A stretch of DNA of 64,000 bases from Dimorphilus gyrociliatus (lineage: Eukaryota > Animalia > Annelida), in contig CAJFCJ010000056.1 of assembly GCA_904063045.1 (NCBI GenBank), positions 6,110 to 70,109 on the forward strand, in the 5' to 3' direction. A model generated the notes under the pieces. It was not told the DNA's origin and made no database searches. It was given only the letters and a program-made list of their open reading frames with translations. The translations under genes were made by a program, and so were the position numbers. Below are positions 23,903 to 64,000 of this stretch, one piece after another; the first letter of the stretch is position 1, and the number at the start of each line of letters is the position of its first letter.

Positions 23903-26660
23903 ATGGAAAAGAAAGTACAAAGCATGACCGCAGCACAAAGACTGGAGACTATTAATAGATTCATGGGGCACACTAAAACGGGCCTGGATGATGGAGGATA
24001 TACTATGGGACTTATCAAATTGAGATGGCTACTCACCAAGGATCAACGATCCACAAGGGAAGAACATTGATGACGATGTGAGAAAGGAGAATATTGAAGC
24101 AGATATAAATAATATCTATATTGGGGCAGCAAAGGGCCAAGCCAACAGACATGGCTTGACACGAAGCAGCAGCCGTTCCTGTGAAAGAGGGATGTCTTCA
24201 GGAAAAAGGAAGAGAAACAGTGCAGTAACTGCAAACGAAAGTGATGATGATGACCTATCAATGATGCAAGTCGATACAGGCAGGCTAAAAAATACAATGT
24301 CTGGCAAGCAATGCCAGACTGCACGAAAAGAGGGATGCACCTTTCATAGGATGGAAGATAGCATTGATGATGAAATAGAGGACACCCCAAAGATGGAAGA
24401 ATACCCACCTTCCAAAGACCTAACAGATTGGATGGTGAAAGGAGAAGAATGGTGGACTGACAAAAAGGAAGAAATAATGGATGAAATTGGCGAGGCCATG
24501 GAGTTGGAGAAGGAGAGACAGAGAGAGGAAAGAGCCCAAGACCAAGCCATGATAAAAAATAACCAGCAAATGCTAAGTGCAATGATAAGATCCACTATAA
24601 CCACTGCCGTGGGTGAGGCCACAGAAAGGGAAAGAAAAAGACATGAAGAAGAGAAAGCCCAGGATGATGATGATAGGATAAGAAGAGAAGAATTTTTAGC
24701 TATGTCATTAAGGTCATCGGTGGTCAGTGCAGTGGAAGAGGCTATGCATAAGGGAAGAGCCAACCCAATAAGACCTGATTTGGAAAAGGAGGCAAGTAAT
24801 GATTGCCCAGAATCAGGAATAATAGAATTGAGGGAAAGATTGGAGAGAATGGAAGCCAAACTTAGTGGGCATAAGGTAAAGGAAGAGAGTAGCATGGGAA
24901 GAGGCAGCTTACAGACGAGAGCAATGCTGCCAGACATGTTAATAAAATTTAATGGAGAAACAGACATGTGCGAGAATTTTGTGGAGAGGCATGAAAGCAT
25001 CATGTCTCAGTACCAACAAGCTCCACAATGGGCAAAGTTTGAGATCCTGCATACGCACTTGGGCATCGAGTTACAAGAAGAGGTAGAAAGATTCAGATCA
25101 TCATCAAAGGATGGTTACAATAGTGCAATGAAATTCCTACGCTCAGAATACGGGGAAATAAAAACAAAAAGTGGCACAGCTTTTGCTAGATTAGAAAAAT
25201 TGGGCAGAGTGGCAGATGGTAACATTCGAAAACATGACGAACTAAGCCAAATACTGAGGGAGGTTTATGAGGATTATAAAGATAGAGATGATCTAGGAAG
25301 TGAACAGTTGGAAGCGATCCAAGTTGTGGCCAGCAAGTTCAACATGACCACACAACTAAGAACAAGATGGAAAGATGAGCAGTTAACAGCTGAATCGAAA
25401 CTCACAGTGAATGACATGGCAAGGTTCATGCAAGCCCAAAGCTGTGGGTTAAAAAATGTAATTATCCAGCAGCAAGCAATGAAGACTGACAGCCTTCGGG
25501 AAGGGCAGCAATAAAAGAAAGGGAATAGATTGTTATATATGTGGGAAGCCACACCCTTTAAGGAACTGCCTACAATTCATAACGATGAGTATCAAAGACC
25601 ATAGCAAAGCAGTTAGAAGGTTGAACTTATGTGAAAACTGTATGGCAAGTAGCCATAGCACATCCGACTGTTGGGGACCAGGATGTAGGATATGTAAAAC
25701 CACAAAGAGCAACATGCTGCATCAGTGCGAAAAAAGAAATGGCAGTAAAAAGAAAATACTGATGATGAAAGCCCCAATAATTGAAAGAGAGAATGGGATG
25801 ACAGCATTAAAGGTGGAAACTGAGAATGGAAACCTCATTGCAATTCAAGATACCAGAGCCGATATGACAATAATTACAAAAAGGGCAGCCAAAAGAATCA
25901 ATGCGAAGCCTATAGATACAGTAGAAGTCAACCTTGCAATGATGGGAAGAGTGGAGAGACACAAAGCAGTGAGATATCAGATAAGCATCAAACAAAGGAA
26001 TTTGGTAGCCCTTGAATATCCAGAGATTACCACAATTGATCAAAGATCCATAACAGATGAGGAGAGAGCAAAATGGCCATATCTAAGAAACTTAGACATA
26101 CCGGAATTGATGAATTATAAGGTGGATTTTTTAATAGGTTGCGACTACATTGACCTAATAGCCCCAAGAACGATTCTGGAAGGGACAGTTGATGAGTCCA
26201 CTGCTATGCATTCTAAATTGGGATGGTCAATTGTTGGTCGGAAGGACAGAAAAAAGGCAACCAACAAAAATTGCCTTGATATTAAAGAATAGGAATGAGA
26301 CAAAGGAACAGAAACTGACAACAAATGATGAACTTTGGGTCAAACAGTTAGAAAACAGAATACACTTTAAAGATGGAAAGGTGTATGCACCTATTCTTTT
26401 TAATGGGAAACAAATGGAACTACAGTGTAACAGACGCATGGCTTACAGCAGGCTACAAGGTCTAAAGAAGAAGTTTACAAGAGACATAGAATACGGGAAG
26501 CAATACAACGAAGGGATAAAGGAGTACCTTGAAAAGGGTTATGCAAAGAAAAATGCAAAAAATGGAACAACAAAGTGGTTCATACCACATCATGGCGTGC
26601 TGAACCCAAATAAAGAAAACATGAGAATTGTTTATGACTGCCCAGCAAAAGGCCAGTGGG
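23903..26660 (+). pseudogene. BEL/Pao gag-pro-partial RT
   Basis: LIKFNGETDMCENF (Gag); CYICGKPH..C / CENC..H..C / CRIC knuckles at 25530-25730; IQDTRADMTII protease-like motif; EYLEKGY..WFIPHHGV..RIVYDCPAK is the Pao RT N-terminus. Several frameshifts; the rest of RT, RNase H and IN are missing. Confidence 0.85.
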
Positions 26661-27179
26661 TGAAATTTTGTTCATGGGAGAATGAACAAAACATTGTTTA
26701 GTGTCAGTGTGTGTGTGTCAGTGTGTGCGTGTGAGTCAACAAGTGTCTGTCAGTGAATGCTGCTGCATCTGGAAATATGTGACACTAGATATTGCCTCTG
26801 GGGTAAATGGCACCAAACTCCTAATATGGTTACCTACAACCCCAGCAGGAGAGTACAATAAGTAATATAATATAGTAATTTCAGATATGTAAAAGAATTA
26901 TTATAAAATTCCAAATATTTTCAGAGTAAGAGATACCAGTGTACTTTGTTGTATTGTAATTGTAGGAATTTCTGCTTCTTCAGAACAGTATTCGTCCTTT
27001 CCAATCATTTATCAACTCACCAAAGTACTCAAATAAATGGAATCTTTCAAGTTCCTACACAAATAGTCTCAAGAAATGTAATTTCAGTAGAAATTAATCA
27101 ACAAAAGGCTGGTATTTCATTTAAAGAAAATGTATTGAGTAAATGAGTTTCTAGTTCTAAACAACTAAGTTTAAACAAG

Positions 27180-32949: not shown

Positions 32950-35355
32950 CAAAAAACCTGTTGCATGCAAATGGTGTACTGACTACATTATTAAATACAC
33001 AAAAAGAGATAATATATATATTCCTCCATTTCCAAACACAAATCTATCTGAACTTGGACCAAATTATATAGCTAGAAAATGCAATTTTACAAAAATGTTC
33101 CCTGTACTTGGTATGTATACTTCATGAAATAAAAATTATACAGAGATTCATTTTAATGGAGATGATAATGAATATGAGTTTTCTGTGGAAATTACAAGTA
33201 TTAAGTATTCTTCTTCTTTTCTGCAACAATATTGCATCTCAATATTTGAAAATGGTCTAGGACCTATAAGATTCTTTTTTCCATCTGAAGGAGAATATGG
33301 TATAAATATTTGTGGACAAAAACGAAAAATTGAACATAATTGTAATTGTTTATGTTTTAAATTTTTTGAAAAAGTACCAGAAAAAAGTTTTCCTACTATT
33401 ACTTCACATATTGTTAAAAGTGAAGAAAAAGCAAATTATACTTTAAAATTTCCAGATAATGGAACTAGAACTATTGGCAAACAAACACATTTCTTTAGGT
33501 TAAAATTAAGGATGGAAGATAATTTCCAATCTTATCAAGAATGTTCTAAAAATATACATTTTAAGATATTTAAAAAGATATCATGTCAATTTAAAATTGA
33601 ATTAAAATGGTATGATGAAAACAATGAAGGACATGATTTATCTATGTATTCATTCTTTGTAAATAGTTATGAAGATGTTACATTCTACATCAATTTTCCA
33701 TTACCAGGAATGTATAAATTTGAAATTGAAGGAAAAGAATTAAATTCCAGAAAAAATTATGAATTGATCTATAATTCTAATTTTTATGCAATTGAATCTA
33801 ATACAAATTCATTTCAATTTCCAATTGTTACTGATAAATGGAGAATTAGTGAAACTCATAAAATTCTTCAACCATTTAGAAAACTCTACTCAAATGAAAA
33901 AGTATTAATACAGATTGAAGGTTTTAAAGCTGATGAAATGATTGCCTGTTGTGTAAATGAAATTTTTCATTTTGACCTCTTTAATGATATATGGGAATGT
34001 GAAATTGACACTGGTGAAAATTTTGGAGATTTAGTTATTAGAGCAAAAATTTATAAAAATGCAAAAATTTTTACTGAAATTTTAATTTATAAAAATTTTT
34101 AAAAATCCAATTATGAAAATGGATAAACCTGCAGTAGAGAATAGTGAAACCACTAGTGAACTGGCTGAACCTGTAATAGGGAATAGTGAAATTAACAGTA
34201 AACTGGATAAACCTGCAATTGAGAATAGTCAAGCTATTAGTAAAAATGAAAATATAGAGGAGATAAATGCTTCACAAACAATTGATATTTCTAAAAATGA
34301 AGTATCTGATGAAAATGATTTTATTAAAGTAATGAAATATGTGCCAAATGTTCAATTTGAGACAATTGAAAATGCTACTAATATAGAAGAAATTGGTGAA
34401 ATAGATTGGTCATTAAAAATAGAAGAAGTTATCTATATCAGTGAATTTCTACCAGCTGATGACTCTGATGTTGGAGAGGATGAAACTCTTAAAATAAATG
34501 TAAGATATTTGTAAATAATGATTTATTCTCTTTTGTAAAAGGATTATTTCTTTCTAAAGGAGAATGAAAATGAAGAAGGTAAAGAAATGTCAAAAAAAAT
34601 TGTAAATAATTCAGAAGAAACTGCAGGAAAGCCAGGTAATAGAAATGATGAAAAGGAAGAGAAATCACAGCAACAACATACTAATCAGGAAGATGTAGCA
34701 AAGAAGGCATTAGGTAATTAAAATTTCACATCTAGATACTGAAATTGTTAGAAATATCATTAAAAATATTGTAGATTTGAAAAAGGCATATGAAGAAAAA
34801 GATTATAAAAAGTTAAAAGTAGCTATAGACAAAGCTTCTGTTAAACCAATAAATCCTTTATTAATTAAAGATTTATCAAAAGCTAATGAATTAAAAGCAA
34901 ATTTAGAAAAAATTTGTGGTTTGCAAAACAGGATTTTAAAACTTGATGCAAAATGTATTGCAGAATTAAATCAGTATAATCAACCACCTGCTGTTGTACA
35001 TCTGGTTATAAAATCAACATTATTGATTTTATCAATTGATGAAGGACAAACTGATGAATGGAAAGAATGTCAAGTTTTTATTAAATATGCATGCTCTTAT
35101 TCTATTTTAAAGAAAATTAAAGCTCTTAAAATCTTAACTGTAGATCCAGCAATCATTCTCAGAGCTGAACAAATAATTTGTGAATTAAATCTGCAAGAAG
35201 TCAAGGAGGCAAGTGCAGGTGCAGCAGCATTCTATTTATGGTGTAAAGGTAACATTGACATCTATAAAAAGATTAACAAAGAAGAAATAGGAAAATCACA
35301 GCCAGCAACCAGAAAAATACAAAAAAATATCTTTCTATCATCTTTTCATCATTAA
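32950..35355 (+). pseudogene. KY/hillarin-like protein, C-terminal part (Ig-like repeats, acidic linker, helical C-terminal domain); 5' part missing
   Basis: VTFYINFPLPGMYKFEIEG-type repeats; terminal exon YNQPPAVVH..W..SAGAAAFYLWC. In-frame TGA at 33125 and a frame break at 34102-34113. No transglutaminase core seen. Family call from memory of motifs. Confidence 0.5.
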
Positions 35356-36834: not shown

Positions 36835-37469
36835 TGTACTGCTCTTGCTGGCAAAATCTATGCGTTTGCAAGTTATAACAATACTGGTTCTACTCGAACC
36901 TTTAAACAAATGTTTAAATTAAAATGGTTTATTCGCAATAATAATACTTAAGCAAGTAACAATATGAGAGTTCAATAGCAGAGTAGATAGTTTGTAATAG
37001 CAGGTTGCCAAATTACCAAACTGTCTTCCAATGTTGAGGAGTAGATGGATGGTTCCAGTGGAGGTTGTTTCCAGATGATTTTCCCAGGTCCTTGGGTCCA
37101 GATGGAAGCTGCATGCCAAATGAGAATAATGAGGATTTATATACTTTGAGGTTTGTCTCTGACATCCAATCATCACTTTACAGTTGCCAAAATGTGTAGT
37201 TCATATTTATCTTTAGTAACAGGATGTTACAAGGTTCAACATTTAGGAAGGTTAATTGAATTATAACTTGGCCACACCCTAGGCAAGTTAATTAAATTAT
37301 AACTTGGCCAAACCTTTATTGGTAATTAAAGATGAGCCTTCAAGCTGACTAATCAGACTTATGTTTGGCCAATGTTATAGCATTTTCTTGCGTAGGTTTT
37401 AAGATGTACATGTATATGTTGCATAAAATAATAGAGTTCAAGGATGTAAAATATAACCAAAGTTGTACA
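36835..37469 (-). repeat. 3' LTR
   Basis: Direct repeat of 45516-46150; begins tgtac and ends gtaca. Confidence 0.97.
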
Positions 37470-37484
37470 ACTTCCCCCTTCTTT
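37470..37484 (-). promoter_or_regulatory. Polypurine tract
   Basis: Minus strand aaagaagggggaagt lies immediately before the 3' LTR. Confidence 0.85.
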
Positions 37485-37500
37485 GTGAAGATGAGTCCCT

Positions 37501-39921
37501 TCATCTTGATTTAATGAGAATTACAGGTGGTTGTTCTTCTTCATTAGTTTGATGTTGACTAAAGCTACAACTTTGTTTCATTAGTTTTGGGTTTTCAGGA
37601 GAGTTATCTGTGCTCTCACTTGGGGTAGCAATTTCTTCTCTTTGTTTTCTTCTTCCAATAATATAGTTGAAAATGATGATACATACCATTGACACTACAA
37701 TACTCAAACAAATATTTCGTATGATAACATAAAGTGTTTTCCCAGGTTTATAGTACCAACTATGGAAAAACTGTTTAATTCCAGATAAATTGGGTACAAT
37801 GCCATTTTTCTCTGCAACAGTGACCATGTTATCATACCTTGCCTGCTTCTGTTCCAGTGAACTGATAACTTGCTTAATTTTTGAGTGCTGGTATGCAATA
37901 TCCTTCTTTACCCCATGGTGGAGTAGATCAGCTAATCTGGCAATTTCAATTTTTGGTTCAGAAAGGTGATTGTGGATATGTAACTGCATGGATTTTGCAG
38001 ACACAGTGTGAAATCTGCATCCTCTTTCTGAATAATACACATATGTTTTGTCTTTCATTGGTTGGTTTCTTATAGGATTTAATGGGTTGTGAGTTGTTTT
38101 GTAGAATAACTTGTTAGACTTACACTCATTATAGGTAATCTCTTCAGGATTGACTTGCTGTAAAACATGAGTAACTGGTTCTACTTGGAAAAGCAGGTTG
38201 TTCATGGTGACAAGTAAAAATTGAGAACATTTGTTATTCTTTTTTATCATGCTTAAGTCACAAACTACTTCTGTTGAGGCTATTGGTGAACATTGTTTAA
38301 TTATAGCTAATTCTCCCATCTGACTACTGTGCATTCCCAACTCATTTGTTAACACTGTGGTCAATTGAGGATCCAAATTTGCTAGTAATGCCATCATTCT
38401 GCTTCTTTGAACAAATTGATTGCAGAGAAGACTTGACAGCTGTTGGGTAAACTTTTTTAAATTCTTAAAATTTGAATCAATACCATGTAGTAAGGTAGAT
38501 GTTTGGGCAGCTTCTCTCATTTCCAATGGGAATTTGTGGTATGGGTTTTTACTTATCTTATGTTTCAGTTTTGCTTCCTTCTTCATCTGCTTTTTAGCCA
38601 TTCTCATGTGTAGAGTAAAATAAATTCCTTCATAGGTAATCTTAAATTCTCTGGCTGGTGGTCCTTTATACCATATGCCCAATGTTGGTAATACCTTCTT
38701 TTTGATTCTTTTCTCACTGTATACATATTTTGAAATCGTGACAGATTGTCTTGTTGCCCTTGTCCAATTGACTGCTTGCAGCATTTCTTGGATATAATAG
38801 TTATCCAGCTCCCAGTAAGATGGACTAATGGGTTGTTGTAGATGATATATCACAACTTCCTTGAGTGTGCCTTTATTTCTCATTAGTTTATACTTTGTGT
38901 TTGTTTCTCTGTACCATTGGTTAAGACTTGGTAAGGGGTTGTTTCGCTTGTATAGTATAATTTGTTCTTTAACTTTATTGGGATAGTTTAATAGTCGTTT
39001 TTCTTCATTTTTGCCAATCTTCTGATATTGTAGCAAATTGTATAGGTGTTCCTTGCTTGTTTCCTGTATTAAACTCTGTTCCTCCAGTGGTACTAGTACT
39101 TTTGTTCCAGGACCACCAATTCCATCAATAAACTTATCTTGATAAGGGATGTCCAGAATAGAATACCCTGGACAAGAATAGTGACCAGCAAATTTGATAC
39201 AACTAATTCTGTTGCTAATTTTTATCCATGGTGATTGTTGCCCAAGTGTGTAATTATTCTTGAGGTTCCTAAAGACAATAATTGCTCTTCTGTTTCACAA
39301 TAGGACTGCCCTGGTAAACAATCTTCCAGGTAGTCCAGATTAGTTGTAATTTTCATATTAGGAGGTTGCCAATATGCTTTGCCAAACTGGATAATTGTGG
39401 TGTATTCCAGCACCTTGGTCGTTGTTGGCCATGTGTAGGCAGCAGGAAACTGATCTTGGTGGATCCAAGTGTTTCTTTTCACCATTAAAGGTTTTCCTTG
39501 AAAAGATCGTTTGTCTTTTATCATCTGTCTGCATTGATCATGAGTTACTTTGATAACTGAGTTAACAATCCTCCTCTTCTTTGCTCCAAAGAAATAGTAA
39601 GTGTAAAAATTAGTTCTTAGATACACTTGACATTTTACTGCTCTTGTTTCAATTTCTTCCAAGTTCAATTCATAGATATCAGCTGTAATTGTCTTGGTTT
39701 CTTGTGATTCTATATTACAAGTTGGCTCATCTGCTAGATCAAATGCCTGGCTTGGTAGTTGGTTAGAACAAAAGTATAACGGTGGTTTAAATGTTAAGGT
39801 AATGTTTTGCACTTGTAACATGGGCACCTTGGTAGGATGGTTTTGGGACTGTTATTGAGTGGATGCAGCCACAGATCACCATTACAGTCATCACTAGTGG
39901 AAGCCACAACATCTGTTTCAT
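37501..39921 (-). CDS. env: Envelope glycoprotein, class III (herpes gB / chuvirus G-like) fusogen; two 1-nt frameshifts (about 39806 and 39280)
   Basis: Signal peptide MKQMLWLPLVMTVMVICGCIHS; Cys pattern with YYFFG and YTWP putative fusion loops; LCNQ..LANLDP..MGELAIIKQCSPI resembles the gB domain III/IV junction; C-terminal TM ICLSIVVSMVCIIIFNYIIG plus a cytoplasmic tail. Confidence 0.8.
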
Positions 39922-40540
39922 GTTAGCTCTTCCTGTGTTGGCTATAGTTGAATGGTTGAAAATTTTGTGTTGTTGTTCCACTCTGATAGTTATTCCATCT
40001 TCTAACTCTATATATTGTGGTTCCACTTCTTGTTGGGAATCTAATTGTTCAGAGATGATTTAGTCTCATCTAAAAATATGACTGACTCATTGTCTGTGTC
40101 ACTTGTATTTTCTTTCTCATCTTGGGATGAATCTACCACTATGAGGGACTCATTATCTGAATGGGTTATGTCAATAATTTCACCTTCAATAATTATTGAC
40201 TCATTATCCGAATGGGTTATATCAATAATTTCGCTTTCAATAATTATTGACTCATCGTCTGAACTAGATATTTCATCTTCTCTATCAGAGATAATGTTTG
40301 CCTCTGAATCTGTATTTTGATCCAGTTCATTATTTGTTTCTGTGTCATCACTTTCAGATGAGCTTGAAGGTTCATTGAGACTGTAATTACTGTCTGTTTT
40401 GAAAGTATTGCTTGTGTCATAACCAGTATCAGAATTAGTAACTTCCATCTCTGAGTCATCACTATCTGAACTTTCTGATGAAGAGTCATGCTGTCCCATC
40501 ATGGCTATAGTGACTTTGTTTAGTTGAGGTTGCCTTATTC
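39922..40540 (-). CDS. Asp/Ser/Glu-rich linker between protease 2 and Env
   Basis: ORF 40041-40502 with SSSESSDSDDSE and tandem DNESIIIE(S/G)EIIDITHS units. In frame with Env in the second copy. Confidence 0.7.
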
Positions 40541-41175
40541 TTTCAGCCAGGTTCCTTTCCTTCTATCAAATTTGAGAGAACACTGTTTAGCTTCAAAATT
40601 GAGGTTTGCTCCCACAGTTTGTAGGAAATCACAACCAAGTATTATTGCTATGTCTAGATTTTCCATAACTATAAATTCTTGTTCCATACTTTCTCCAGCA
40701 AATTGGATATTCAGCTTTACGCTTCCTTTTTGCTTTAAAGCTTTCCCATCAGCTGAAGTTATAATTGGTAAGCCAATTGTTTCTTTATCCATAATTGTAA
40801 CATCCATTAACTTGATTTCTTTTTCAGTAATAAAGGATCTCAATGCTCCTGTGTCACACAAGGCAATGACTTCTTGGCCTTTTTGATTCTTCAAACGGAA
40901 TTGGAAGTCATTTCTTCCTTCTACCTGAGAAAGATATTGGAGGTGTGTTATTTCCTTCTCCACAAGGTGAAAGATTGTTGTTGCTTCTTTCCCTGTTTCC
41001 AACTTATTAGATTCATTGGCTAGTCTTAATCTGCTACCATGTACCAACTTGCATGTATTATCATCCATTTGTATTTCATATATCCACTTTTGATGATTGA
41101 CTTTTGTTATTCGGTATGGGCCTAACCATTTTAAAGAAGGGATTTTTGTTATTGCAATTCTTGCAGCATCATTTC
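40541..41175 (-). CDS. Integrase C-terminus (GPY motif) plus second retropepsin-type aspartic protease
   Basis: KWLGPYRI then ALCDTGALRSFI ... AIILGCDFLQ. Continuous with integrase in copy 2 (ORF 62030-63310). Confidence 0.85.
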
Positions 41176-44100
41176 TTAAGAATACTTCATCATCAACCTC
41201 AAATATTTTGGAAGATTGAGATTTCTATTCTTTCTTTCCCTATATTGTTCTTTTGCCATGATGGATTTACAGAAGGCTGTAGCTCTTAACTGTACTAATT
41301 GCTGCTGGTGATTGAATACAAATAGTACATTTGTTTCAGGAGAGGTAGTATGCATTGTTACATCAATCAGTGTTCTTGTGCTGGTGCCAAAAAGAAGTTC
41401 CTGGGGTGGTAGTCTTGTACTTCCTACAGGTGATTGATTCAAAAATGCTTGAATCAAGGGTAGGTTTGCAACCCAGTTATGCTGATTTTCTTCCACCACT
41501 AATTTATTGATTTCCTTCCTCACTTCTCTATTTCTTCGTTCAACTAGTCCATTGCTCTGGCTTCTATAAGCTGTTGTTTGGATTTTCTCAATACCTAATA
41601 CCTTCATAAACTCTTTAAAAGCTTTACCAACAAAGTTTCTTCCTTGATCTGTCAACATTTGTTTTGGAATTCCAAAAATGGGAAAAAATCTGTTGAAAAG
41701 AAGGTTTGCAATTTCTTTACTGGTTTGCTGTTTGAGTGCATATAAAACTGTGTATCTACTGAAATGATCCACTATCACAAGTATGAATCTGTATGACTTA
41801 ACCATGGGTAAGGGTCCCATTATATCCATGGCTACCAACTCCATTGGTGATGCAGGGTGAAAGGTTTCTACCAAAGGGTATACTCTACTCCTACCATTCA
41901 TTTGTTCACACAAAGTGCAATCCTTTATTGAATTCTCAATCATAATCTTTAATTTTGGGTGCCAAAAGGTCTTTGTAATTATTTGTAATGTCATTCTGGG
42001 TCCATGGTGATTGTGAATTTTATTTTTATGGAATTTAGGGAGCAGAGTTAGCATCAAATGGTCAGGTAAAACCAGAATGTTTCTTTCTTCAAGGATAATC
42101 CAGATCATTTCCTTGTGAACAAACATCTCCATTATGAAAGGTGTAAAAGTTCCAAAATAAGGAATAGGTAGCTGACCATCCAATGTTAAATATTCTTTAA
42201 TTGATTTTAAATTCACATCTTTTTCTTGCTCTGACTGTAAGTCAACAGAAGACAAATCAATTTTCTCTTCACTGTTATCACTGGTAGCTACAAAAGTTAA
42301 CTCTGGTGTATGTTCATACTGTTCCATTTTAACTGAAATAGAGGGAGAATTCTCCTTTTTGATCTTTCCATGAATTAGCTCTTCAAATGTTACTTTCCTT
42401 GGGGGTGTATATTCTTCTAATCTTGTTAATGCATCTGCTCTATTTTTTCGTCCTGTCACATAGTTAATTGTAAATTTTAAATCCATTAAAGCCATGACCC
42501 ATTTTGCTGTGCTGACATTCAATTTGTTTTGCTTAAATGTTTGTACTAGACTCTGATGGTCAGTATATAAAAAGAATGGCTTGTCTTGAAGGTAATGTAA
42601 AAATTTCTTTACAACCCAGTAAACACCAAATGCTTCCTTTTGATAGGCTGCATATTTCATTTGATTATTGTTGAATTGTTTTGAAGCATAGGCAATGGGT
42701 TTCATTGTTTTCTTCCCATTCTCATCTACATAAACTTGTTCAAGAACTCCTCCTACAGCTACATTCGATGCATCTGTTGTTAAGTGAAAATCTTTAGCAA
42801 AATCAGGTAGTTGTAATACAGGAGGGTTAACTACTGCATCTCTCAACTTGAAAAATGATTGCTTGGCTTCCTCAGTCCATTGCAATTTATCCTTTTTCCC
42901 ATGTAGTTTCATTAACATATACAGAGGTTTAGCTACTCTTGCAAAATCTTGTATAAATTTTCTGTAATAGCCACAAAATGCAACAAAGCTTAGTAGTGAA
43001 TTTGCAAACACTGGTGGCTGTAAATTATATAATTTATCTGTCTTGGACTTATCTGTTTCAATCCCCTTTTCTGATACAATGTGTCCCAAGAATTGAACTT
43101 GTTCTTTCAAAAACACACATTTACTTAGTTTAATCTTAAAATTGTACTTTTGAATCTGTTGAAGAATGGTCTCCAATGCTTCCCAATGTTGGTCCAGCGA
43201 CTTGGTAAATATTATTATGTCATCAAGGTAGTTTAGGCACAAATGCTTTACATCCTTTAGCACAAATGAATTCATTACATAACTAAAATGAGGAGGGGCA
43301 TTGGTTAATCCAAAAGGCATCTTAATAAATTCAAACAAGCCAAAAGGTGTAATAAATGCTGTTTTAGACCTATCTTCTTTCTTGATGTTAATGTGGTGGT
43401 ATGCACTTGTCAAATCCATTGTAGAAAAGAATTTATTTCCTCCTCCCAAATGGTCAAAAAGATCATCTTGATTTGGCAGTGGATACTTGTTTTTAACTGT
43501 CATTTTGTTTAGTTTTCTATAATCTACACACATTCGTAGACTACCTTCCTTCTTTCTTACGAAAACAATTGGTGAAGCCCAATTGCTCTTGCTTGGTTGA
43601 ATAACTTTGCTTTTTACCAATTCAGCTATCTGTTGCTTACATTCTTCTTGTTTTTGAGGAGGCATTCTATATGGCCTTTGTCTATATGGTGTTGAACCTG
43701 GTTCAAGAGTTATTTCCAAGGGTGGTACCTCTGGATTGCCAATATCAAATCTGTCTTCTGCAATAGTTTCTTTATATTTTGCCAGAATTTGGGTAACTTT
43801 GTTCTTCATCTCGGGATTTTCTTGTTCAATTGTTGTCTGAAGGGTATGTATTTGACTCTCATTCTTTTTCATAATAAGAGGAACTGGGTAAAACCCTTTG
43901 AAAGATAAGTGTTGTGTTCCAACAGGGTAATTCTTTTCTGTACCTGGCTGGAGTATAATCTGTCTCTTGCCAAAGTCAAGGGTAGCTCCATTTTGTTGTA
44001 GAAAGTCACACCCAATAATACATTGTTGTGTAATGATTTTGTTGATCAGAAAGCGTTGTTTAATAATCTTTTCATTAAAATAAAGTCTGAGAATGATTTC

Positions 44101-44385
44101 TCCACATATCTCGATGCTATTTCCTGAAGCATCTCTAGCATTTTTCACAGTTTGTTCTGGGAAGGATGCTTTTCCTTGAACTTGTCTTAATACCTTTTTT
44201 GAAATGAAAGATCTGTCACTACCAGAGTCTATCAAGGCATCAAACTTAAAACCAGTATTAGTTTCAAATTGTCCAATAAATGTTGAAGCATTTCGCTCAG
44301 ATTGTTTGCTTTGTAACAGCTGACAAGTGGATTCGTCACTATCTGAAAAACAGAGAATATCTTGAACTTCGTCGTTTTCTGACAT
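41176..44385 (-). CDS. pol: Pol: protease 1, reverse transcriptase, RNase H, integrase
   Basis: LIDSGS protease; WASP..RMCVDYR, YLDDIIIF RT; LTTDAS..DALTR RNase H; H-H-C-C and MDIMG / TDQGRNF / SNGLVER integrase motifs. No internal stops. Confidence 0.97.
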   Translation of the reverse strand: MSENDEVQDILCFSDSDESTCQLLQSKQSERNASTFIGQFETNTGFKFDALIDSGSDRSFISKKVLRQVQGKASFPEQTVKNARDASGNSIEICGEIILRLYFNEKIIKQRFLINKIITQQCIIGCDFLQQNGATLDFGKRQIILQPGTEKNYPVGTQHLSFKGFYPVPLIMKKNESQIHTLQTTIEQENPEMKNKVTQILAKYKETIAEDRFDIGNPEVPPLEITLEPGSTPYRQRPYRMPPQKQEECKQQIAELVKSKVIQPSKSNWASPIVFVRKKEGSLRMCVDYRKLNKMTVKNKYPLPNQDDLFDHLGGGNKFFSTMDLTSAYHHINIKKEDRSKTAFITPFGLFEFIKMPFGLTNAPPHFSYVMNSFVLKDVKHLCLNYLDDIIIFTKSLDQHWEALETILQQIQKYNFKIKLSKCVFLKEQVQFLGHIVSEKGIETDKSKTDKLYNLQPPVFANSLLSFVAFCGYYRKFIQDFARVAKPLYMLMKLHGKKDKLQWTEEAKQSFFKLRDAVVNPPVLQLPDFAKDFHLTTDASNVAVGGVLEQVYVDENGKKTMKPIAYASKQFNNNQMKYAAYQKEAFGVYWVVKKFLHYLQDKPFFLYTDHQSLVQTFKQNKLNVSTAKWVMALMDLKFTINYVTGRKNRADALTRLEEYTPPRKVTFEELIHGKIKKENSPSISVKMEQYEHTPELTFVATSDNSEEKIDLSSVDLQSEQEKDVNLKSIKEYLTLDGQLPIPYFGTFTPFIMEMFVHKEMIWIILEERNILVLPDHLMLTLLPKFHKNKIHNHHGPRMTLQIITKTFWHPKLKIMIENSIKDCTLCEQMNGRSRVYPLVETFHPASPMELVAMDIMGPLPMVKSYRFILVIVDHFSRYTVLYALKQQTSKEIANLLFNRFFPIFGIPKQMLTDQGRNFVGKAFKEFMKVLGIEKIQTTAYRSQSNGLVERRNREVRKEINKLVVEENQHNWVANLPLIQAFLNQSPVGSTRLPPQELLFGTSTRTLIDVTMHTTSPETNVLFVFNHQQQLVQLRATAFCKSIMAKEQYRERKNRNLNLPKYLRLMMKYS

Positions 44386-45455
44386 GCTTTCATTGTCTAA
44401 TGTTTCTAATTTTTGTAGCTTAGGTTCCTCTTTCAGTATCGTCTTTGCTGGTTGATTTTTCTTATAATACCTATTTGTTGTAGTTGGTGCATACTTTTGG
44501 ACTTTTGGCTTGAAAACTTTTCTTTAGTAGCATTTTTGTTGTCAGGTACATGCTTTCTATTCCAGAAATTTGGGGTTTCTGTAGAAGCATCTTTTCTGAT
44601 TACCTGGGTCTTTTTGGTCTCTTTTCTTTGTTGAGTTTCCAATTTTGACACCATTGTGATCGGTTTTCTTTGAGTTAGTTTTAATGAAGTTTCTGCTTGC
44701 TTAGCAGCCTCATATAGTTCTGCCAATGTTTGACATTTAGGATGTAAGGTGTACACTAAATGTAGAATATCCTGTTGTAATCCTCTTTGTAAAACTTCCA
44801 TCAGTTTTATTTCTTTCATAGTTGCAAGCAATTGTGGTTCCATTGGTCTAGGTGGAGAAAACCTCTTTATCAATTTCTTTGCTCTATTAACAAACTGAAC
44901 CACACTTTCGCCATTCATTTGCTTTAAGTTAAGCAATTTCTCCTGATACTCCAAAGGATCTAGATCAAATTCGTCATGGAGGGCTTTCCATATTTCCTCC
45001 ACAGTAGGCTCTCCATCCAGAGCCAACACCAAATCCTTTGCAGGACCAGTTAAATAATCTAAAAGATTTGCTTTCACAACATCTTCTCCTATCCAACCAT
45101 AAGCATAACATGCCTGATTAAAGTCTTCTTTGAATTTTGAACACTCCTTGCTTCCATCATACAACTTGAGAATAGTTCTTTGAGGGCGGTCCCAAGCAGC
45201 CCTTAATGCTTGAATTACTGTTGTGATATCAACATTTGGGTTCTGTGCTGGGTGATGTGTTCCATCTCCATGATCTGTTGGAATTGTGATTCGATTTCTT
45301 TTCATTTCACTCACCAATCTATCATAGTCTTCAATTAGTCTTTGTTGCCTTTCTGACATTCCTGCTGGCTGAATTGTAATTGTTGGAGTTGCTGGGGTTG
45401 AAGGGTTAGAGTCTGTAACTGCCCCAGTGGCGTTTCCATTTCCTCCTTCTGCCAT
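44386..45455 (-). CDS. gag: Gag (retrotransposon capsid; no CCHC knuckle seen)
   Basis: ATG at 45455 (MAEGGNG); LKLYDG..F..W..NLLDYLTGPAK capsid motif. In frame with pol in copy 2. Confidence 0.9.
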
Positions 45456-45493
45456 ATTTACTTTCTCAAAACTTTTGAATAAACCAAAAGAAT

Positions 45494-45511
45494 ATCCTGT
45501 CGACTGCGCCA
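45494..45511 (-). promoter_or_regulatory. Primer binding site, tRNA-Ser type
   Basis: Minus strand tggcgcagtcgacaggat, 4 nt downstream of the 5' LTR. Resembles the TGGCGCAGTCG tRNA-Ser PBS of 17.6/297-type gypsy elements. Confidence 0.8.
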
Positions 45512-45515
45512 AATT

Positions 45516-46150
45516 TGTACTGCTCTTGCTGGCAAAATCTATGCGTTTGCAAGTTATAACAATACTGGTTCTACTCGAACCTTTAAACAAATGTTTAAAT
45601 TAAAATGGTTTATTCGCAATAATAATACTTAAGCAAGTAACAATATGAGAGTTCGATAGCAGAGTAGATAGTTTGTAAAAGCAGGTTGCCAAATTACCAA
45701 ACTGTCTTCTAATGTTGAGGAGTAGATGGATGGTTCCAGTGGAGGTTGTTTCCAGATGATTTTCCCAGGTCCTTGGGTCCAGATGGAAGCTGCATGCCAA
45801 ATGAGAATAATGAGGATTTATATACTTTGAGGTTTGTCTCTGACATCCAATCATCACTTTACAGTTGCCGAAATGTGTAGTTCATATTTATCTTTAGTAA
45901 CAGGATGTTACAAGGTTCAACATTTAGGAAGGTTAATTGAATTATAACTTGGCCACACCCTAGGCAAGTTAATTAAATTATAACTTGGCCAAACCTTTAT
46001 TGGTAATTAAAGATGAGCCTTCAAGCTGACTAATCAGACTTATGTTTGGCCAATGTTATAGCATTTTCTTGCGTAGGTTTTAAGATGTACATGTATATGT
46101 TGCATAAAATAATAGAGTTCAAGCATGTAAAATATAACCAAAGTTGTACA
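45516..46150 (-). repeat. 5' LTR
   Basis: Direct repeat of 36835-37469, adjacent to the PBS. Confidence 0.97.
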
Positions 46151-47816: not shown

Positions 47817-48833
47817 TCAAGTGTGATAAAACACATATGGGAAAGAGAGGCAAGTTTTTAGGATAGCATTTTAAATGTGCAACCTTTTTATACATAAGAA
47901 TGTATAAGAAACCAAAAAGCGCCCTCTAGTAGATTTTTATAAATATTATATAGTATAGTTCCAAAAATCTTTTCATAGTAGTAATCAACTTTTTTAAATT
48001 CAAGTAAACCCAAACACTAAAAGCAAGAGTTAGAGATTGTGATAGAGATAGATGATTGGAATGAAAATACAGGAGCTTATATACTCTTTGGTGAGTTGAT
48101 GATATCCAATCATTGGTTTGAAGTTGGTGAATGCTCTAGTTCATGTTTATATTTAGTAATAGGATGTTACAAAGTCCACTAGACATAGTCCTTATCTTTT
48201 TTGGAAGCAAATTGAATTATAACTAGTCTAAAAGTGACTGTGTTGTGATTTGTGATGGGATGTATCTATCTTACTTAAAATCAATTACTGTTTTTTAAGT
48301 GTTGAACAATCAAGGTGTCCAAGAGAAACATTTGAGAATTTGAGTAAAATGACTTTCTGGAGAAGAATGTCCTGATTTTGTAGAATATGAATATTAGATA
48401 AGAAATTTCTTGGGTTACTACTTGTACGGGATAATAGAAGAGTAAAAACCTGACATACAGTTTAAACTGAACTATATATTCACACAGAATGTGGGCGTGG
48501 CAATATAGTAAAGAACTCTTATCATTCGAAGCGTATATTTATTTTGTATCAATTTTTAAACTTTCTTACACTTGCTTCCCTCTGTAGGCATTTTCTAAGA
48601 ATATTTCCAAAGTTTACTATGCTATTACTTGTTTGGTCTGTTTGCGAAGCAGTAAGACAATTGGCTTCAATGTAAAATTTCTTATTCTGAAAGAAAAACA
48701 AAAACAACGAAAGTAGTCTTTTTTGTCAGATAATTAAAAAAAAAAAATCTAAAGCAAAGCTTAAAAAATTCACTTTAAGAAAGATATTTTTAATACCAAA
48801 ATCTTCAACTAGAATTAGAGAGAATTTGTTTGC

Positions 48834-51800
48834 CTATGCAACAGCCGTAATAACATGTCTATATAGACAATATATTGATATTATTGACTCGGCAACTTTT
48901 TCAACGCACAAACTACTCAAGTTCTCCAGCAGACAATTCGGTAGAATAAAATTTTCCTTAAAGTTATTAGAAAATAAAATTACTAAGAGAATATAGAAAA
49001 GAAAACTGGTATTGAGTTGTTGTTGATGTTCCAAGGACACTTACTATTGCTTGTTAATTTAAATGTCATATTTTCTAGATGTTTTTTCCTGAAATAATAC
49101 AATTAATAGCATTTATAGTAAAAAAAAAAAAAACCTTGTTAATTTGTTCATACTCAGCTTCTCGAATTTTGATTTGTTGTTTTTTATAAAACATAATTAT
49201 TTCGGAAAAAGTATAAACAATTGGATTACACAGAGAGTTCAATGGCAGAAAAATAACAACAATTAAACTATAAATATCTTGATTGATATTCATATTAAAT
49301 ACAACTGATGAAAAACCTATAATATGGTATAAACGTCAGAAGTGACGTCATTTTATTGTTGTAGATATTATATGTAGTCGATGAATGAGTAGCGAGCGTA
49401 GGTTATGGCTAAATTCACCAACTTTACTCGATATACGTGTTAAAGATTTAAGGTATATACTAGTAAATATAGCAGTAATAATAAGTAATAACGTGTCAAG
49501 ATAATAAGAGGTAGTGAAAATACGGTTAGGTTTTAAATATGTGTAATGTAAAGTAATTATAAAATAACATAAAGGGAATTTGGCTGACCGCCAAATTTAG
49601 GCGATGTACCCGTCGACTACATTATATAATACCTAGAAAAGAAATTGGAAGCCAACAAGAAATATTTGTTAGAACTATAACCAATGCAGTTGTCTGGACT
49701 TTTTTTGTTACTTTTCCAGAACAGTTATTCTTTATCATTTTACTACTTTTATACAATGATAAGAGTAGTATTAAATAAATAATTAATATTAATATCGATA
49801 TCAGAAACATTAATATGCTATAAAGAAAAAATGACCATTGCCAGCCCCTAGTCTTTATAATTCCTATTTGAATATTTATACAGATTGGTAACAACTGGTA
49901 ATAATTCTAGAAAATAGGCAACAAAATTATTTTTAATTGTTTAGGGTTCATTTCAGTTTTGTTTGTTTTATCTTGTTAAGTTTTTACCTTGAATGTATAG
50001 AGTGGTATCAATGAGAATAATAGAGCAAAGGATAGTATTATAATGGATGTCATTGTGGTTATTTTGTTTGTAAAGTACAAACTCATTGGAAACTTAACGA
50101 CTAAATATCTTTCAATTGTTATTATTAATAGATTGAACGATGAAAAAAACTATTAGATCTGAACAGGAAGTAAACTTGGTTGATTTTGGTTGGCAACTTT
50201 TAATGTAGGACTGAAATTTCCATACAAAACAGCATAGATTAAAATATTCACTTTTCACAATTTCAATTGATTTAATATGTTTTGATAAATGGATTAAATA
50301 CTTTTCAGGTAAAATACTATTCAAAAAGTATAAATATTTCAAATTTGTCGCGTGTAGAAAAACATCTTGTTCAATTTTTATAAAATTACAATCATTTATT
50401 GTCAAATTTATCAAATTTTTTAAATTTGAAAAATACTGTCTCTTCAAAATATTTAATGAAACATTTTTCAGTGTTAAAGAGACTAATTTTGGAAAAATAG
50501 TAAACTCTAGATTAGCTACATCAATAATTTTGATATGCTCAAGTTGAAAATACTGTAACAGAGAAAAGCAACGTTTTTTATCGAAATGATAAGAGAAATT
50601 TAAAAACATTTGAGAAAGATGAATATCGAATAAATTTGGAAATTCTTCACTTATTGGAAAGTTGAGTATACAATTTATAAAAGATATTGATTGTATTTGA
50701 TAAAATTTCTTCGATGATTTTGACTTTTCTTTTGATATGATTGCGGAATTTGACAATAACCTTTTAAATAAGGGATTATTTTGATTCTTTAGAGTTATAT
50801 CTTTGGAACAATATATTGAAAAATTCTCAATGACAGGTTCGCAGTTAAGAAATTTATTTTCATAAGGACAATTCATTTCGTCGCTACCATCTAAACAGTC
50901 GAGTTCACCATCGCAGATCTTATTTATTTCAACAATGCCTTTTGTTTCTTTACACCTGAAGAAACTTTCCAATGAATGTTGACCTAAATTGAAAAAGAGT
51001 GAATAAACTAGGATTGATAGGATTTCACACTCTAGCAATTTACTGCAATTATCTTCATCATCACCCTTTCTGCAATGGAATACACGGTCGCAAACTAATA
51101 CAATGGAAATACAGTAATTGTCATCATTGCACAAATACTCTCCATGAGCACACATTCTCTTTCTGCAATTTGAAAGATATTTGAATGGAGGGTGTAGATT
51201 TGGTTTGTATTGATTTTTGATGTTTTTAAAAAGTTTACATTTAGTATTGAAAGATCTTATAAGTAAAACTCTACAAAAGTCTTCATTGATTGGTTGATTA
51301 GAAAATTCAAATTAATCATTAAACAAAAAATTGTACTGTTAATTCTCGACTGATTTCCAAATGATTGAGTTGATTTTCTAACTGCATAGGCCAAATCTGA
51401 ACATTTATCAGTTTCATCACTCCCATCTTCACAATGTCTAAATCCATCACAAATTTCATTAAAATTAATATTCTTATTCTTATCACAAATCATAATGCAA
51501 TCTGTTTTTTATTTTGATAAACGTTTCATTTTATTATCAAAATACTTTTTGAAAAATTTTTGACAAACTCGAATGAGATTGCAAATCAGATTTGTCAATA
51601 CAATGTATTTTACCAACATGGGTTTGTACGCATTGTTTACTTTTGCATTTACTATAAATCTCAAAAATTCAAAATTTTAAAAAACAATAAATGACAAATG
51701 TTTGATTTTGATATTTAATAGTTACAAGTTTGACTGATCACTACAATCTGGATAATCTGCTTTATAAAAATATTCAATTAATTCCTATAGTTCACGATTT

Positions 51801-58839: not shown

Positions 58840-61800
58840 GTATGATGCTGCTAAGCAAGCAGAAACCTCATTAAAACTAACTCAAAGAAAACCAATCACA
58901 ATGGTGTCAAAATTGGAAACTCAACAAAGAAAAGAGCCCAAAAAGACCCAGGTGATTAGAAAAGATGCTGCTACAGAAACCCCAAATTTTTGGAATAGAA
59001 AGCATGTTACTGACAACAAAAATGCTACTAAAGAAAAGTTTTCAAGCCAAAAAGTCCAAAAGTATGCACCACCTCCAACAAACAGGTATTATAAGAAAAA
59101 TCAACCAGCAAAGATGATACAGAAAGAGGAACCTAAGCTACAAAAATTAGAAACATTAGACAATGAAAGCATGTCAGAAAATGATGAAGTTCAAGATATT
59201 CTCTGTTTTTCAGATAGTGAAGAATCCATTTGTCAGCTGTATCAAAGCAAACAATCTGAGCGAAATTCAACATTTATTGGACAATTTGAAACTAATACTG
59301 GTTTTAAGTTTGATGCCTTGATAGACTCTGGTAGTGACAGATCTTTCATTTCAAAAAAGGTATTAAGACAAGTTCAAGGAAAAGAGTCCTTCCCAGAACA
59401 AACTGTGAAAAATGCTAGAGATGCTTCAGGTAATAGGATAGAGATATGTGGAGAAATCATTCTCAGACTTTATTTTAATGGAAAAATTATTAAACAATGC
59501 TTTCTGATCAACAAAATCATTACACAACAATGTATCATTGGGTGTGACTTTCTACAACAAAATGTAGCTACCCTTGACTTTGGCAAGAGGCAAATTATAC
59601 TCCAGCCAGTTACGGAAAAGAATTACTCTATTGGAACACAGCACTTATCTTTCAAGGGACTTTACCCAGTTCCTCTTACTATGAAAAAGAATGAGAGTCA
59701 AATACATACCCTTCAGACAACAATTGAACAAGAAAGTCCTGAGATGAAGGAAAAAGTTACCCAAATTCTGGCAAAATATAAAGAAACTATTGCAGAAGAC
59801 ACATTTGATATTGGCAATCCAGAGGTACCACCCTTGGAAATTACTCTTGAACCAGGTTCAATGCCATAAAGACAAAAGCCATATAGAATGCCACCTCAAA
59901 AACAAGAAGAATGTAAACAACAGATAGCTGAGTTGGTAAAAAGGAAAGTTATTCAACCAAGCAAAAGCAATTGGGCTTCACCAATTGTTTTCGTAAGAAA
60001 GAAGGAAGGTAGTCTACAAATGTGTGTAGATTATAGAAAACTAAACAAAATGACAGTTAAAAACAAGTATCCACTGCCAAATCAAGATGATCTTTTTGAT
60101 CATTTGGGAGGAGGAAATAAATTCTTTTCTACAATGGATTTGACAAGTGCATACCACCACATTAACATCAAGAAAGAAGACAGGTCTAAAACAGCATTTA
60201 TTACACCTTTTGGCTTGTTTGAATTTATTAAGATGCCTTTTGGATTAACTAATGCCCCTCCTCATTTTAGTTATGTAATGAACTAATTTGTGCTAAAAGA
60301 TGTAAAGCATTTGTGCCTTAACTACCTTGATAACATAATAATATTTACCAAGTCACTGGACCAACATTGGGAAGCATTTGAAACCATTCTTCGACAGATT
60401 CAAAATTACAATTTTAAGATTAAACTAAGTATATGTGTGTTTTTGAAAGAACAAGTTCAATTTTTCGGACACATTCTATCAGAAAAGGTGATTGAAACAG
60501 ATAAGTCCAAGACAGATAAATTATATAATTTACAGCCACCAGTGTTTGCAAATTCACTGCTAAGCTTTGTTGCATTTTGTGGCTATTACAGAAAATTTAT
60601 ACAAGATTTTGCAAGAGTAGCTAAACCTCTGTATACGTTAATGAAACTACATGGGAAAAAGGATAAATTGCAATTGACTGAGGAAGCCAAACAATCATTC
60701 TTCAAGTTAAGAGATGCAGTAGTTGAGCCTCCTGTATTACAACTACCTGATTTCACTAAAGATTTTCACTTAACAACTGATGCAGCAAATACAGCAGTAG
60801 GAGGACTGTTTGAACAACTTTATGTAGATGATAATGGAAAGAAAACAATGAAACCCATTGCCTACACATCTAAACAATTCAACAATAATCAAATGAAATA
60901 TGCAGCCTATCAAAAGGAAGCTTTTGCTGTTTATTGGGTTGTAAAGAAATTTTTACATTATCTTCAAGACAAACCATTCTTTTTACATACTGACCATCAA
61001 AGTCTGGTAAAAACATTCAAGCAAACAAAGTTAAATGTCAGCACAGCAAAATGGGTCATCACTTGAATGGATTTAAAATTTACAAACAAGTATGTGCCAG
61101 GACAGAAAAACAGAGCAGATGCTTTAACAAGATTAGAAGAATATACACCCCCAAGGAAAGTGACATTTGAAGAGCTAATTCATGGAAGCATCAAGGAGGA
61201 GAATTCTCCCTCTATTTCAGTTAAAATGGAACAGTATGAACATACACCAGATCTGTCTTTTATAGCTACAAGTGATAACAGGGAAGAGAAAATTGATTTG
61301 TCTTCTGTTGACTTACAGTCAGAGCAAGAAAAAGATATGAATTTGAAATCAATTAAAGAATATTTAACACTGGATGGTCCGCTACCTATTCCTTATTTTG
61401 GAACTTTTACACCTTTCATAATGGAGATGTTTGTTCACAAGGAAATGATCTGGATTATCCTTGAAAAAAGAAACATTCTGGTTTTACCTGACCATCTGAT
61501 GCTAACTCTGCTCCCTAAATTCCATAAAAATAAAATTCACAATCACCATGGACCCAGAATGACATTACAAATAATTACAAAGACCTTTTGGCACCCAAAA
61601 TTAAAGATTATGATTGAGAATTCAATAAAGGATTGCACTTTGTGTGAACAAATGAATGGTAGGAGTAGAGTATACCCTTTGGTAGAAACCTTTCACCCTG
61701 CATCACCAATGGAGTTGGTGGCCATGGATATAATTGGACCCCTACCCATGGTTAAGTCATACTGATTCATACTTGTGATAGTGGATCATTTCAGTAGATA

Positions 61801-64000
61801 CACAGTTTTATACTCACTCAAACAGCAAACCAGTAAAGAAATTGCAAATCTTCTTTTCAACAGATTCTTTCCCATTTTTGGAATTCCAAAACAAATGTTG
61901 ACAGATCAAGGAAGAAACTTTGTTGGTAAAGCTTTCCAAGAGTTTATGGAGGTATTAGGTATTGAGAAAATCCAAACAACAGCTTATAGAAGCCAGAGCA
62001 ATGGACTAGTTGAATGAAGAAATAGAGAGGTGAGGAAGGAAATCAATAAATTAGTGGTGGAAGAAAATCAGCATAACTGGGTTGCAAACCTACCCTTGAT
62101 TCAAGCATTTTTGAATCAATCACCTGTAGGAAGTACAAGACTACCACCCCAGGAACTTCTTTTTGGCACCAGCACAAGAACACTGATTGATGTAACAATG
62201 CATACTACCTCTCCTGAAACAAATGTACTATTTGTATTCAATCACCAGCAGCAATTGGTACAGTTAAGAGCTACAGCCTTCTGTAAATCCATCATGGCAA
62301 AAGAACAATATAGGGAAAGAAAGAATAGAAATCTCAATCTTCCAAAATATTTTGAGGTTGATGATGAAGTATTCTTAAGAAATGATGGTGCAAGAATTGC
62401 AATAACAAAAATCCCTTCTTTAAAATGGTTAGGCCCATACCGAATAACAAAAGTCAATCATCAAAAGTGGATATATGAAATACAAATGGATGATAATACA
62501 TGCAAGTTGGTACATGGTAGCAGATTAAGACTAGCCAATGAATCTAATATGTTGGAAACAGGGAAAGAAGCAACAACAATCTTTCACCTTGTGGAGAAGG
62601 AAATAACACACCTCCAATATCTTTCTCAGGTAGAAGGAAGAAATGACTTCCAATTCCGTTTGAAGAATCAAACAGGCCAAGAAGTCATTGCCTTGTGTGA
62701 CACAGGAGCATTGAGATCCTTTATTACTGAAAAAGAAATCAAGTTAATGGATGTTACAATTATGGATAAAGAAACAATTGGCTTACCAATTATAACTTCA
62801 GCTGATGGGAAAGCTTTAAAGCAAAAAGGAAGCATAAAGCTGAATATCCAATTTGCTGGAGAAAGTATGGAACAAGAATTTATCGTTATGGAAAATCTAG
62901 ACATAGCAATAATACTTGGTTGTGATTTCCTACAAACTGTGGGAGCAAACCTCAATTTTGAAGCTAAACAGTGTTCTCTCAAATTTGATAGAAGGAAAGG
63001 GAACCTGGCTGAAAGAATAAGGCAACCTCAACTAAACAAAGTCACTATAGCCATGATGGGACAGCATGACTCTTCATCAGAAAGTTCAGATAGTGATGAC
63101 TCAGAGATGGAAGTTACTAATTCTGATACTGGTTATGACCAAGCAATACTTTCGAAACAGACAGTAATTACAGTCTCAATGAACCTTCAAGCTCATCTGA
63201 AAGTGATGACACAGAAACAAATAATGAACTGGATCAAAATACAGATTCAGAGGCAAACATTATCTCTGATAGACAAGATGAAATACCTAGTTCAGACAAT
63301 GAGTCAATAATTATTGAAAGTGAAATTATTGATATAACCCATTCTGATAATGAGTCAACAATTATTGAAGGTGAAATTATTGACATAACCCATTCAGATA
63401 ATGAGTCCCTCATAGTGGTAGATTCATCCCAAGATGAGAAAGAAAATACAAGTGACACAGACAATGAGTCAGTCATATTTTTAGATGAGACTAAAATCAT
63501 CTCTGAACAATTAGATTCCCAACAAGAAGTGGAACCACAATATATAGAGTTAGAAGATGGAATAACTATCAGAGTGGAACAACAACACAAAATTTTCAAC
63601 CATTCAACTATAGCCAACACAGGAAGAGCTAACATGAAACAGATGTTGTGGCTTCCACTAGTGATGACTGTAATGGTGATCTGTGGCTGCATCCACTCAA
63701 TAACAGTTCCAAAACCATCCTACCAAGGTGCACATGTTACAAGTGCAAACATTACCTTAACATTTAAACCACCGTTATACTTTTGTTCTAACCAACTACC
63801 AAGCCAGGCATTTGATCTAGCAGATGAGCCAACTTGTAATATAGAATCACAAGAAACCAAGACAATTACAGCTGATATCTATGAATTGAACTTGGAAGAA
63901 ATTGAAACAAGAGCAGTAAAATGTCAAGTGTATCTAAGAACTAATTTTTACACTTACTATTTCTTTGGAGCAAAGAAGAGGAGAATTGTTACTCAGTTAT
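58840..64000 (+). mobile_element. Second copy of the env-bearing Gypsy element: 5'-truncated, inactivated, runs off the window end
   Basis: Closely matches 44740 down to 39570 in inverted orientation. One reading frame from Gag through PR2 is broken only by 5 nonsense codons (59867, 60284, 61064, 61763, 62015). YLDD is mutated to YLDN. After a 1-nt loss near 63140 the linker-Env frame is open to 64000. Confidence 0.95.

Follow-up and report, generated by a model that had tools for sequence, protein, structure and literature searches.

A second retropepsin downstream of integrase in a gB-type Ty3/Gypsy element of Dimorphilus gyrociliatus

Retroviruses and LTR retrotransposons carry one protease, whose dimerization times maturation, and elements of the Ty3/Gypsy kind normally follow this rule. 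In this study, we asked whether an element of the annelid Dimorphilus gyrociliatus encodes a second protease behind its integrase, where such a domain might have come from, and what it might do there. The window, that is, the whole 64,000-nucleotide stretch of contig CAJFCJ010000056.1 that was analyzed and to which all positions refer, is AT-rich eukaryotic DNA with a GC content of 26 to 33% outside the elements. Comparison of the window with itself delimits one full LTR element on the minus strand, here called copy 1 (36835-46150; 9,316 bp, or ~9.3 kb), whose two 635-bp LTRs have TG..CA ends and show 5 differences between the 5′ and the 3′ member. The 5′ LTR (45516-46150, minus strand) is followed, 4 nt further on, by a primer-binding site (45500-45511, minus), and the other end is formed by a polypurine tract and the 3′ LTR (36835-37484, minus), recognized by self-comparison and sequence features. 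Between them lie, all on the minus strand, Gag (44500-45452; a weak PNMA match); PR1, the standard Gag-adjacent protease (43921-44301; DSG at 44229-44221); reverse transcriptase and RNase H (42484-43560; Pfam RVT_1 and RT_RNaseH); and an integrase with zinc finger, core, and C-terminal GPY domain (41020-42066, with GPY at 41122; Pfam Integrase_H2C2 and rve, and weakly Integrase_p58_C). The LTRs, primer site, polypurine tract, and the order Gag-PR-RT-RH-IN are hallmarks of Ty3/Gypsy elements (Metaviridae). No clean target-site duplication frames the element, since its flanks, TATAT and ATAGG, agree in at best 3 of 4 bases.

The original prediction was that a complete second retropepsin follows the integrase in both copies of the element in the window, and profile and fold comparisons bear this out. 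This domain, PR2 (about 40556-40936, minus), lies directly after the integrase C-terminal domain and ahead of the envelope region; the interval first proposed for it, 40541-41175, does hold PR2 but takes in the integrase C-terminal domain as well. Its catalytic DTG is found at 40855-40847 in copy 1 and at 62699 in copy 2 (PR2 at 62618-62998, plus strand), and the GCDF at 40636 represents the downstream hydrophobic-G-x-D motif. In both copies, PR2 scores above the Pfam curated cutoffs; the retropepsin profile search suggested as a check gave, for copy 1, 25.9 with RVP (cutoff, 20.7), 30.2 with RVP_2 (20.3), and 28.6 with gag-asp_proteas (28.2), higher than PR1, which stays slightly under the cutoffs (RVP, 18.7; RVP_2, 19.4). 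An AlphaFold2 model based on an alignment of 37 sequences, in which D28, G30, G71, and G101 are nearly invariant, reached a mean pLDDT of 90.1 and a pTM of 0.82, and its top matches in the PDB were the retroviral-type protease domains of Ddi1 (TM 0.66 to 0.74), followed by the HIV-1 and EIAV proteases. By its motifs, its profile scores, and its single-lobe retroviral protease fold, PR2 thus belongs to the retropepsins (clan AA, family A2-like). Ddi1 and ASPRV1 are host enzymes, and their retroviral-type proteases are the closest solved folds and sequences to PR2; identity between Ddi1 and PR2 is 13 to 18%, with no sign that PR2 descends from either enzyme. We are close to certain that the element really contains PR2 as an intact domain, and we consider it highly probable that this domain is active and under selection.

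As it stands in the window, copy 1 is divided into seven ORF pieces by six frame breaks, with breaks near 41200 (integrase), 40555 and 40060 (spacer), and 39800 and 39285 (Env). At all six, contigs from runs X1, X3, and X5 show a length other than that of the window, and at the two breaks flanking PR2, runs X2 and X4 also differ in length, each in one contig with zero other letter changes (the contigs with altered lengths come from five runs of two studies, some of which may be the window's own source). A single X1 contig of 5,579 bp spans integrase to Env with 1 other letter changed, and an X3 contig of 3,230 bp spans integrase, PR2, and spacer. Five of the six junctions are naturally in frame in copy 2. 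Because the run contigs differ in length at these positions and copy 2 is in frame, the six breaks are most probably errors of assembly, which makes it likely that the natural product comes from a single ORF of about 2,650 codons that reads Gag-PR1-RT-RH-IN-PR2-acidic spacer-signal-Env. Coverage in the RNA run, X6, was limited to 258 bases of integrase, and run X7, which consisted only of short, C-to-T-rich pieces, was left out.

Copy 2 (58841-64000, plus) is 5′-truncated, has stops in pol, and continues beyond the end of the window; it is 96.4% identical to copy 1 over 5,166 bp. A single ORF (62018-63310) extends from the end of its integrase through PR2 into the beginning of the spacer, confirming the expectation that PR2 is in frame with integrase in this copy. 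The differences between the copies are unevenly spread: 10 to 25 of every 100 codons have changed in PR1, reverse transcriptase, and RNase H; 2.5 to 5.5 per 100 from integrase through spacer; and 3 of 122 in PR2. Copy 2 belongs to the same family as copy 1, either as a mosaic or as a partly collapsed copy, the product of recombination or of assembly collapse. With only 3 of 122 PR2 codons changed and with stops in pol, it is a weak second witness for PR2, and the near identity of the window copies over this domain means that their comparison adds nothing on selection.

One run departs from the others within PR2 itself. The main X5 contig lacks 60 nt, or 20 codons of PR2, at 40768-40827; runs X1 to X4 keep this stretch, which rules out its absence as a general genomic state. 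It is one of three X5 skips (37148-37215, 38088-38148, and 40766-40827, plus strand; 66, 59, and 60 nt) that read GT..AG opposite to the element genes, whereas such ends are expected by chance in 0.46% of random 55- to 70-nt deletions; the median intron of D. gyrociliatus measures 66 bp (PMC7854359). Because its ends are of intron type on the strand opposite to PR2, as in the two other skips, we read the 60-nt gap as antisense splicing; the X5 skips may represent spliced antisense transcripts, perhaps silencing precursors, the type of run X5 not being on record. The same run holds one contig from a diverged relative in which the start of reverse transcriptase is fused in frame to the acidic spacer (40490/43507), so that 3,016 nt from the RT core to PR2 are skipped, likely a nonautonomous Gag-PR1-Env derivative.

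Diverged relatives are more informative about selection on PR2. Among 1.84 billion representative sequences, the top match to PR2 is P0001, a protein of D. gyrociliatus named DgyrCDS14462, which is 65% identical over 82 columns and retains the motif K(V/I)T(I/V)AMM about 25 residues beyond the PR2 domain. In diverged contigs from runs X2, X4, and X5, 17 of the 27 PR2 differences counted fall on third codon positions (P = 0.0015), in a count that was confined to short contigs chosen for at least 80% DNA identity, excluded the rows of other contigs, and dropped 3 rows in an indel zone, with 40 of 43 rows listed; the DTG is unaffected by the differences listed for these contigs. Since relatives at this distance keep PR2, the domain is likely under selection, as judged from sequence comparison. 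The public gene model of P0001 comprises the C-terminal two-thirds of a PR2-type protease followed by a TIR-domain protein, and it may be mis-joined or a true exonized piece.

What PR2 might do is constrained by the region behind it. An acidic, Ser/Thr-rich spacer (39925-40490, minus; 26% D+E and 3.6% K+R in the 165 aa of copy 2 that were measured), for which a Pfam search matched no family, leads into a predicted internal signal peptide (39856-39921, minus), the first hydrophobic segment in the entire coding region, and then into a class III fusion-type Env (37501-39855, minus) with a transmembrane segment near its C terminus (~37657-37713). In the ESM Atlas, Env scores 0.93, with 195 of 256 features in common, against the Monjiviricetes/rhabdovirus G/gp64/gB families, and its ten best matches having a family all fall in one clan; the N-terminal Env piece alone scores only 0.86. 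An 85-aa stretch of Env also shares 25% identity with the P0149 Env, a Monjiviricetes fusion protein by Pfam; a single-sequence structure model was unusable (pLDDT 38), and the R-x-K/R-R motif is absent from the Env sequence. Signal peptide, class III ectodomain, and transmembrane segment after pol are thus all present, as in env-bearing Ty3/Gypsy elements of gB type (errantiviruses in the wide sense of PMC13524379). Because no hydrophobic segment precedes the signal, PR2 is expected to be cytosolic, and because the signal peptide separates the spacer from the Env ectodomain, PR2 would be unable to mature that ectodomain. Of the earlier suggestion that PR2 may release Env or the linker, a role at the junction of integrase and linker survives as the best reading, whereas the intervening signal peptide argues against release of Env itself by PR2 and rules out an Env-maturing protease.

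Signal peptidase is generally able to release proteins at internal signals. On the best reading, the internal signal would direct Env into the endoplasmic reticulum, host signal peptidase would release it, and the cytosolic Gag-Pol part would stay tethered to the membrane via spacer and signal. A PR2 homodimer would then cut its own flanks, near TIF/HL and TIAM/MG, and so detach integrase from the acidic spacer and from the signal peptide in the membrane, leaving the usual Gag and Pol sites to PR1. Each predicted cut site is based on one relative: upstream, TIFHL (40964-40978, minus) is as far from the catalytic motif as AVYNI is in P0002; downstream, KVTIAMM (40497-40517, minus) corresponds to KITVAMM in P0001, across intervening residues that have diverged. 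We take TIAM/MG to resemble a cut site of HIV Gag. PR1 could make identical cuts, which counts against this reading, and the one-ORF Gag-Pol-Env proteins P0140 and P0152 are without a protease before Env, so the one-ORF layout does not need PR2. We give self-release by PR2 an even chance of being right.

The origin of PR2 bears on the alternatives. The original prediction saw in PR2 a diverged duplicate of PR1. The two are 30% identical and have in common motifs seldom seen in 167 other protease domains (GCDFLQ in 1 and RSFI in 4). However, protease trees place PR1 outside a well-supported clade of PR2, P0001, and P0002, and PR1 ranks only 85th among the BLAST rows of PR2. Beyond P0001, the nearest relative of PR2 is the protease of P0002 (41% identity; clade support, 100/98), which directly follows a Gag that is 26% identical over 247 aa to the Gag of copy 1. 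Trees with PR1 held beside the PR2 clade were accepted by the AU test (p-AU 0.66 and 0.27), but so were those with each of five unrelated proteases in that place (five of five; p-AU 0.056 to 0.38); in one taxon set, the tree with PR1 beside the PR2 clade lay 5 log-likelihood units above the free tree. PR2 may therefore stem from an old duplication of PR1 or from capture together with env, and P0002 may represent the donor type or a deletion derivative.

If PR2 arrived with an env captured from a donor element, it could be a redundant maturation protease, retained solely for the need to fold and be excised cleanly. Its kinship with the Gag-adjacent protease of P0002 fits such a history, as does the neighborhood of env in other elements, which lies beside the sole protease in P0138, P0149, and P0187 and has a second protease right behind it in P0112. 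Yet the catalytic motifs and both flanks of PR2 have been retained over long divergence, and P0002 may itself have arisen by deletion of the stretch from PR1 to integrase; we regard a mere passenger as unlikely. A single-chain, pepsin-like enzyme formed by the pairing of PR1 with PR2 within the same chain is suggested by the presence of two complete halves in one likely ORF, by the rare C-terminal motif that they have in common, and by the one taxon set that favors PR1 beside the PR2 clade. Such an enzyme would cut in cis, independently of concentration and possibly before the signal peptide exits the ribosome. But the halves share 30% identity and are separated by about 1,100 residues, the tree result failed against its controls, and HIV Gag-Pol with two tethered protease copies underwent premature processing and yielded no infectious particles (PMC8537868). 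The pairing is accordingly improbable, and we are just as skeptical of the wider proposal that, in a natural two-protease polyprotein, it sets the moment at which Gag-Pol is released from an Env precursor bound to the ER; were it true, the single-chain PR1-PR2 design would occur naturally although it blocks particle formation when engineered into HIV.

PR2 might also have become the main maturation protease, with PR1 drifting or narrowed in its role, given that PR2 passes the Pfam cutoffs missed by PR1 and that PR2, on a short branch, groups with a Gag-adjacent protease, while the branch of PR1 is long. PR1 nevertheless retains DSG and GCDF, and its 7 synonymous to 6 nonsynonymous changes between the copies are like those of reverse transcriptase (12 to 11), and we hold out little prospect for this exchange of roles. 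A cytosolic protease with predicted cut sites on both sides could instead be released to attack a host protein, such as a defense or trafficking factor, with no special role in the precursor, and in the lineage of P0057 and P0261 a second protease stands beside a domain that is OTU-like by motif only; the substrate is purely conjectural, and we think this very doubtful. There remains an artifact, a nested insertion or misassembly that brought in the protease of another element, for which the assembly-type frame errors in the window and the mosaic copy 2 might be cited. It was rejected: there is no Gag before PR2, no RT after it, and no internal LTR, single short-read contigs (the X1 and X3 contigs above) span the region, and the length of copy 1 equals that of the published element, all of which makes this explanation exceedingly improbable.

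How unusual is this layout? Queried with the end of integrase joined to PR2, none of 111 matches had its best stretch across both domains. Of the 308 proteins fetched, 182 contain a single integrase and no more than one reverse transcriptase, 142 of them in plain order, and a protease after integrase occurs in two, P0006 and P0112 of one cluster, where it stands behind Env; P0003, P0026, P0111, P0171, and P0198 were set aside as host-element or two-element fusion gene models. As the set was picked by query similarity and its closest member is only about 42% identical in RT/RNase H, these counts show rarity, not absence. A word search among 346 candidates yielded no long protein with the integrase-PR2 region, which is weak evidence, and searches with the locus found no relative in viral contigs, JGI metagenomes (for PR2 and P0002), or prokaryote genomes.

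Other Gypsy lineages have second proteases in other places. Like copy 1, P0006 and P0112 combine two retropepsins and an Env-like region in one ORF, but their second protease lies past Env and is followed by a further membrane segment, a chromodomain follows their integrase, their place in the RT tree is separate, and their second protease falls outside the PR2 clade. The Pol of P0057 and P0261, like that of copy 1, has two retropepsin regions (P0057 shows two RVP stretches; P0261 begins inside the first), yet here the second protease is placed after RNase H and before integrase, behind a motif that we presume to be OTU-like and for which Pfam gave no OTU match, and P0057 and P0261 form an RT clade of their own. 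When 47 rows were placed in a quick RT/RNase H tree, the three layouts with two proteases stood apart, with one-protease elements between them. Tandem retropepsins of two or three domains also occur in P0087, P0007, P0008, and P0012, in P0087 ahead of RT. The Gag-Env-Pol elements of nematodes, bryozoans, and flatworms (PMC13524379), including P0138, P0149, and P0187, share with copy 1 a class III Env that adjoins a protease, but it is their sole protease and lies downstream of Env.

The element family itself has been cataloged. Martin-Duran et al. described the Dingle family of D. gyrociliatus, Ty3/Gypsy elements whose Env is gB-like (PMC7854359), and Chary and Hayashi listed Annelida_Polychaeta_Dgyr_errantivirus_1, for which they gave 7 copies and called a chromodomain where POL ends (PMC13524379). 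In both, as in copy 1, a Ty3/Gypsy element carries a gB-like Env of class III behind integrase, and Dgyr_errantivirus_1 has the identical 12-nt primer site, a span of 9,315 bp compared to 9,316 bp, and LTRs of 631/636 bp compared to 635 bp (PMC13524379). The chromodomain reported at its POL C terminus marks a difference, as Pfam gave no Chromo match at E values up to 2 in the integrase C-terminal part and spacer pieces of copy 1, where a remote match is possible. Copy 1 is likely Dingle/Dgyr_errantivirus_1, an identification based on primer site, length, LTR size, and Env type. Neither the text nor the searched supplements of the two papers mention a second protease, although the domain diagrams in their figures, the bioRxiv supplements, or the GitHub files may show PR2: the word "protease" occurs once in the text of PMC7854359, as a laboratory reagent, and once in PMC13524379, in a generic legend, and is absent from 7 supplement files. 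A literature search that covered few subscription journals, and none of Repbase, Dfam, or GyDB, returned no relevant paper on Gypsy elements with any protease beyond the usual one. The earlier view that the layout is undescribed thus holds for the second protease in these texts and supplements, but not for the family, cataloged twice, and second proteases exist in other Gypsy lineages; PR2 is apparently an undescribed feature of a known element family.

A recently copied element with two proteases that are 30% identical is a natural system in which to ask how two enzymes can divide specificity and timing between them, and how an element whose capsid, enzymes, and envelope come from one ORF keeps cytosolic and membrane products apart. 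Second proteases at two other positions in separate lineages suggest a recurrent feature that standard annotation has missed; if they were gained independently in at least three Gypsy lineages, they would constitute a recurring, undescribed solution to polyprotein timing. The window also holds a broken Bel/Pao-type element (24024-26701, plus) with a DUF1759 Gag, a zinc knuckle, a protease-like stretch, and the start of a reverse transcriptase. A 120-bp stretch at 48060-48178, 74% like the LTR, is a remnant of a related family. Three ORFs (12033-13142, 33128-34102, and 50112-51311) encode FLYWCH, KY-like Ig, and LDL-receptor/LRR domains, and many short dispersed repeats are present, for example, at 2192-2747, 3295-3849, and 17444-18003.
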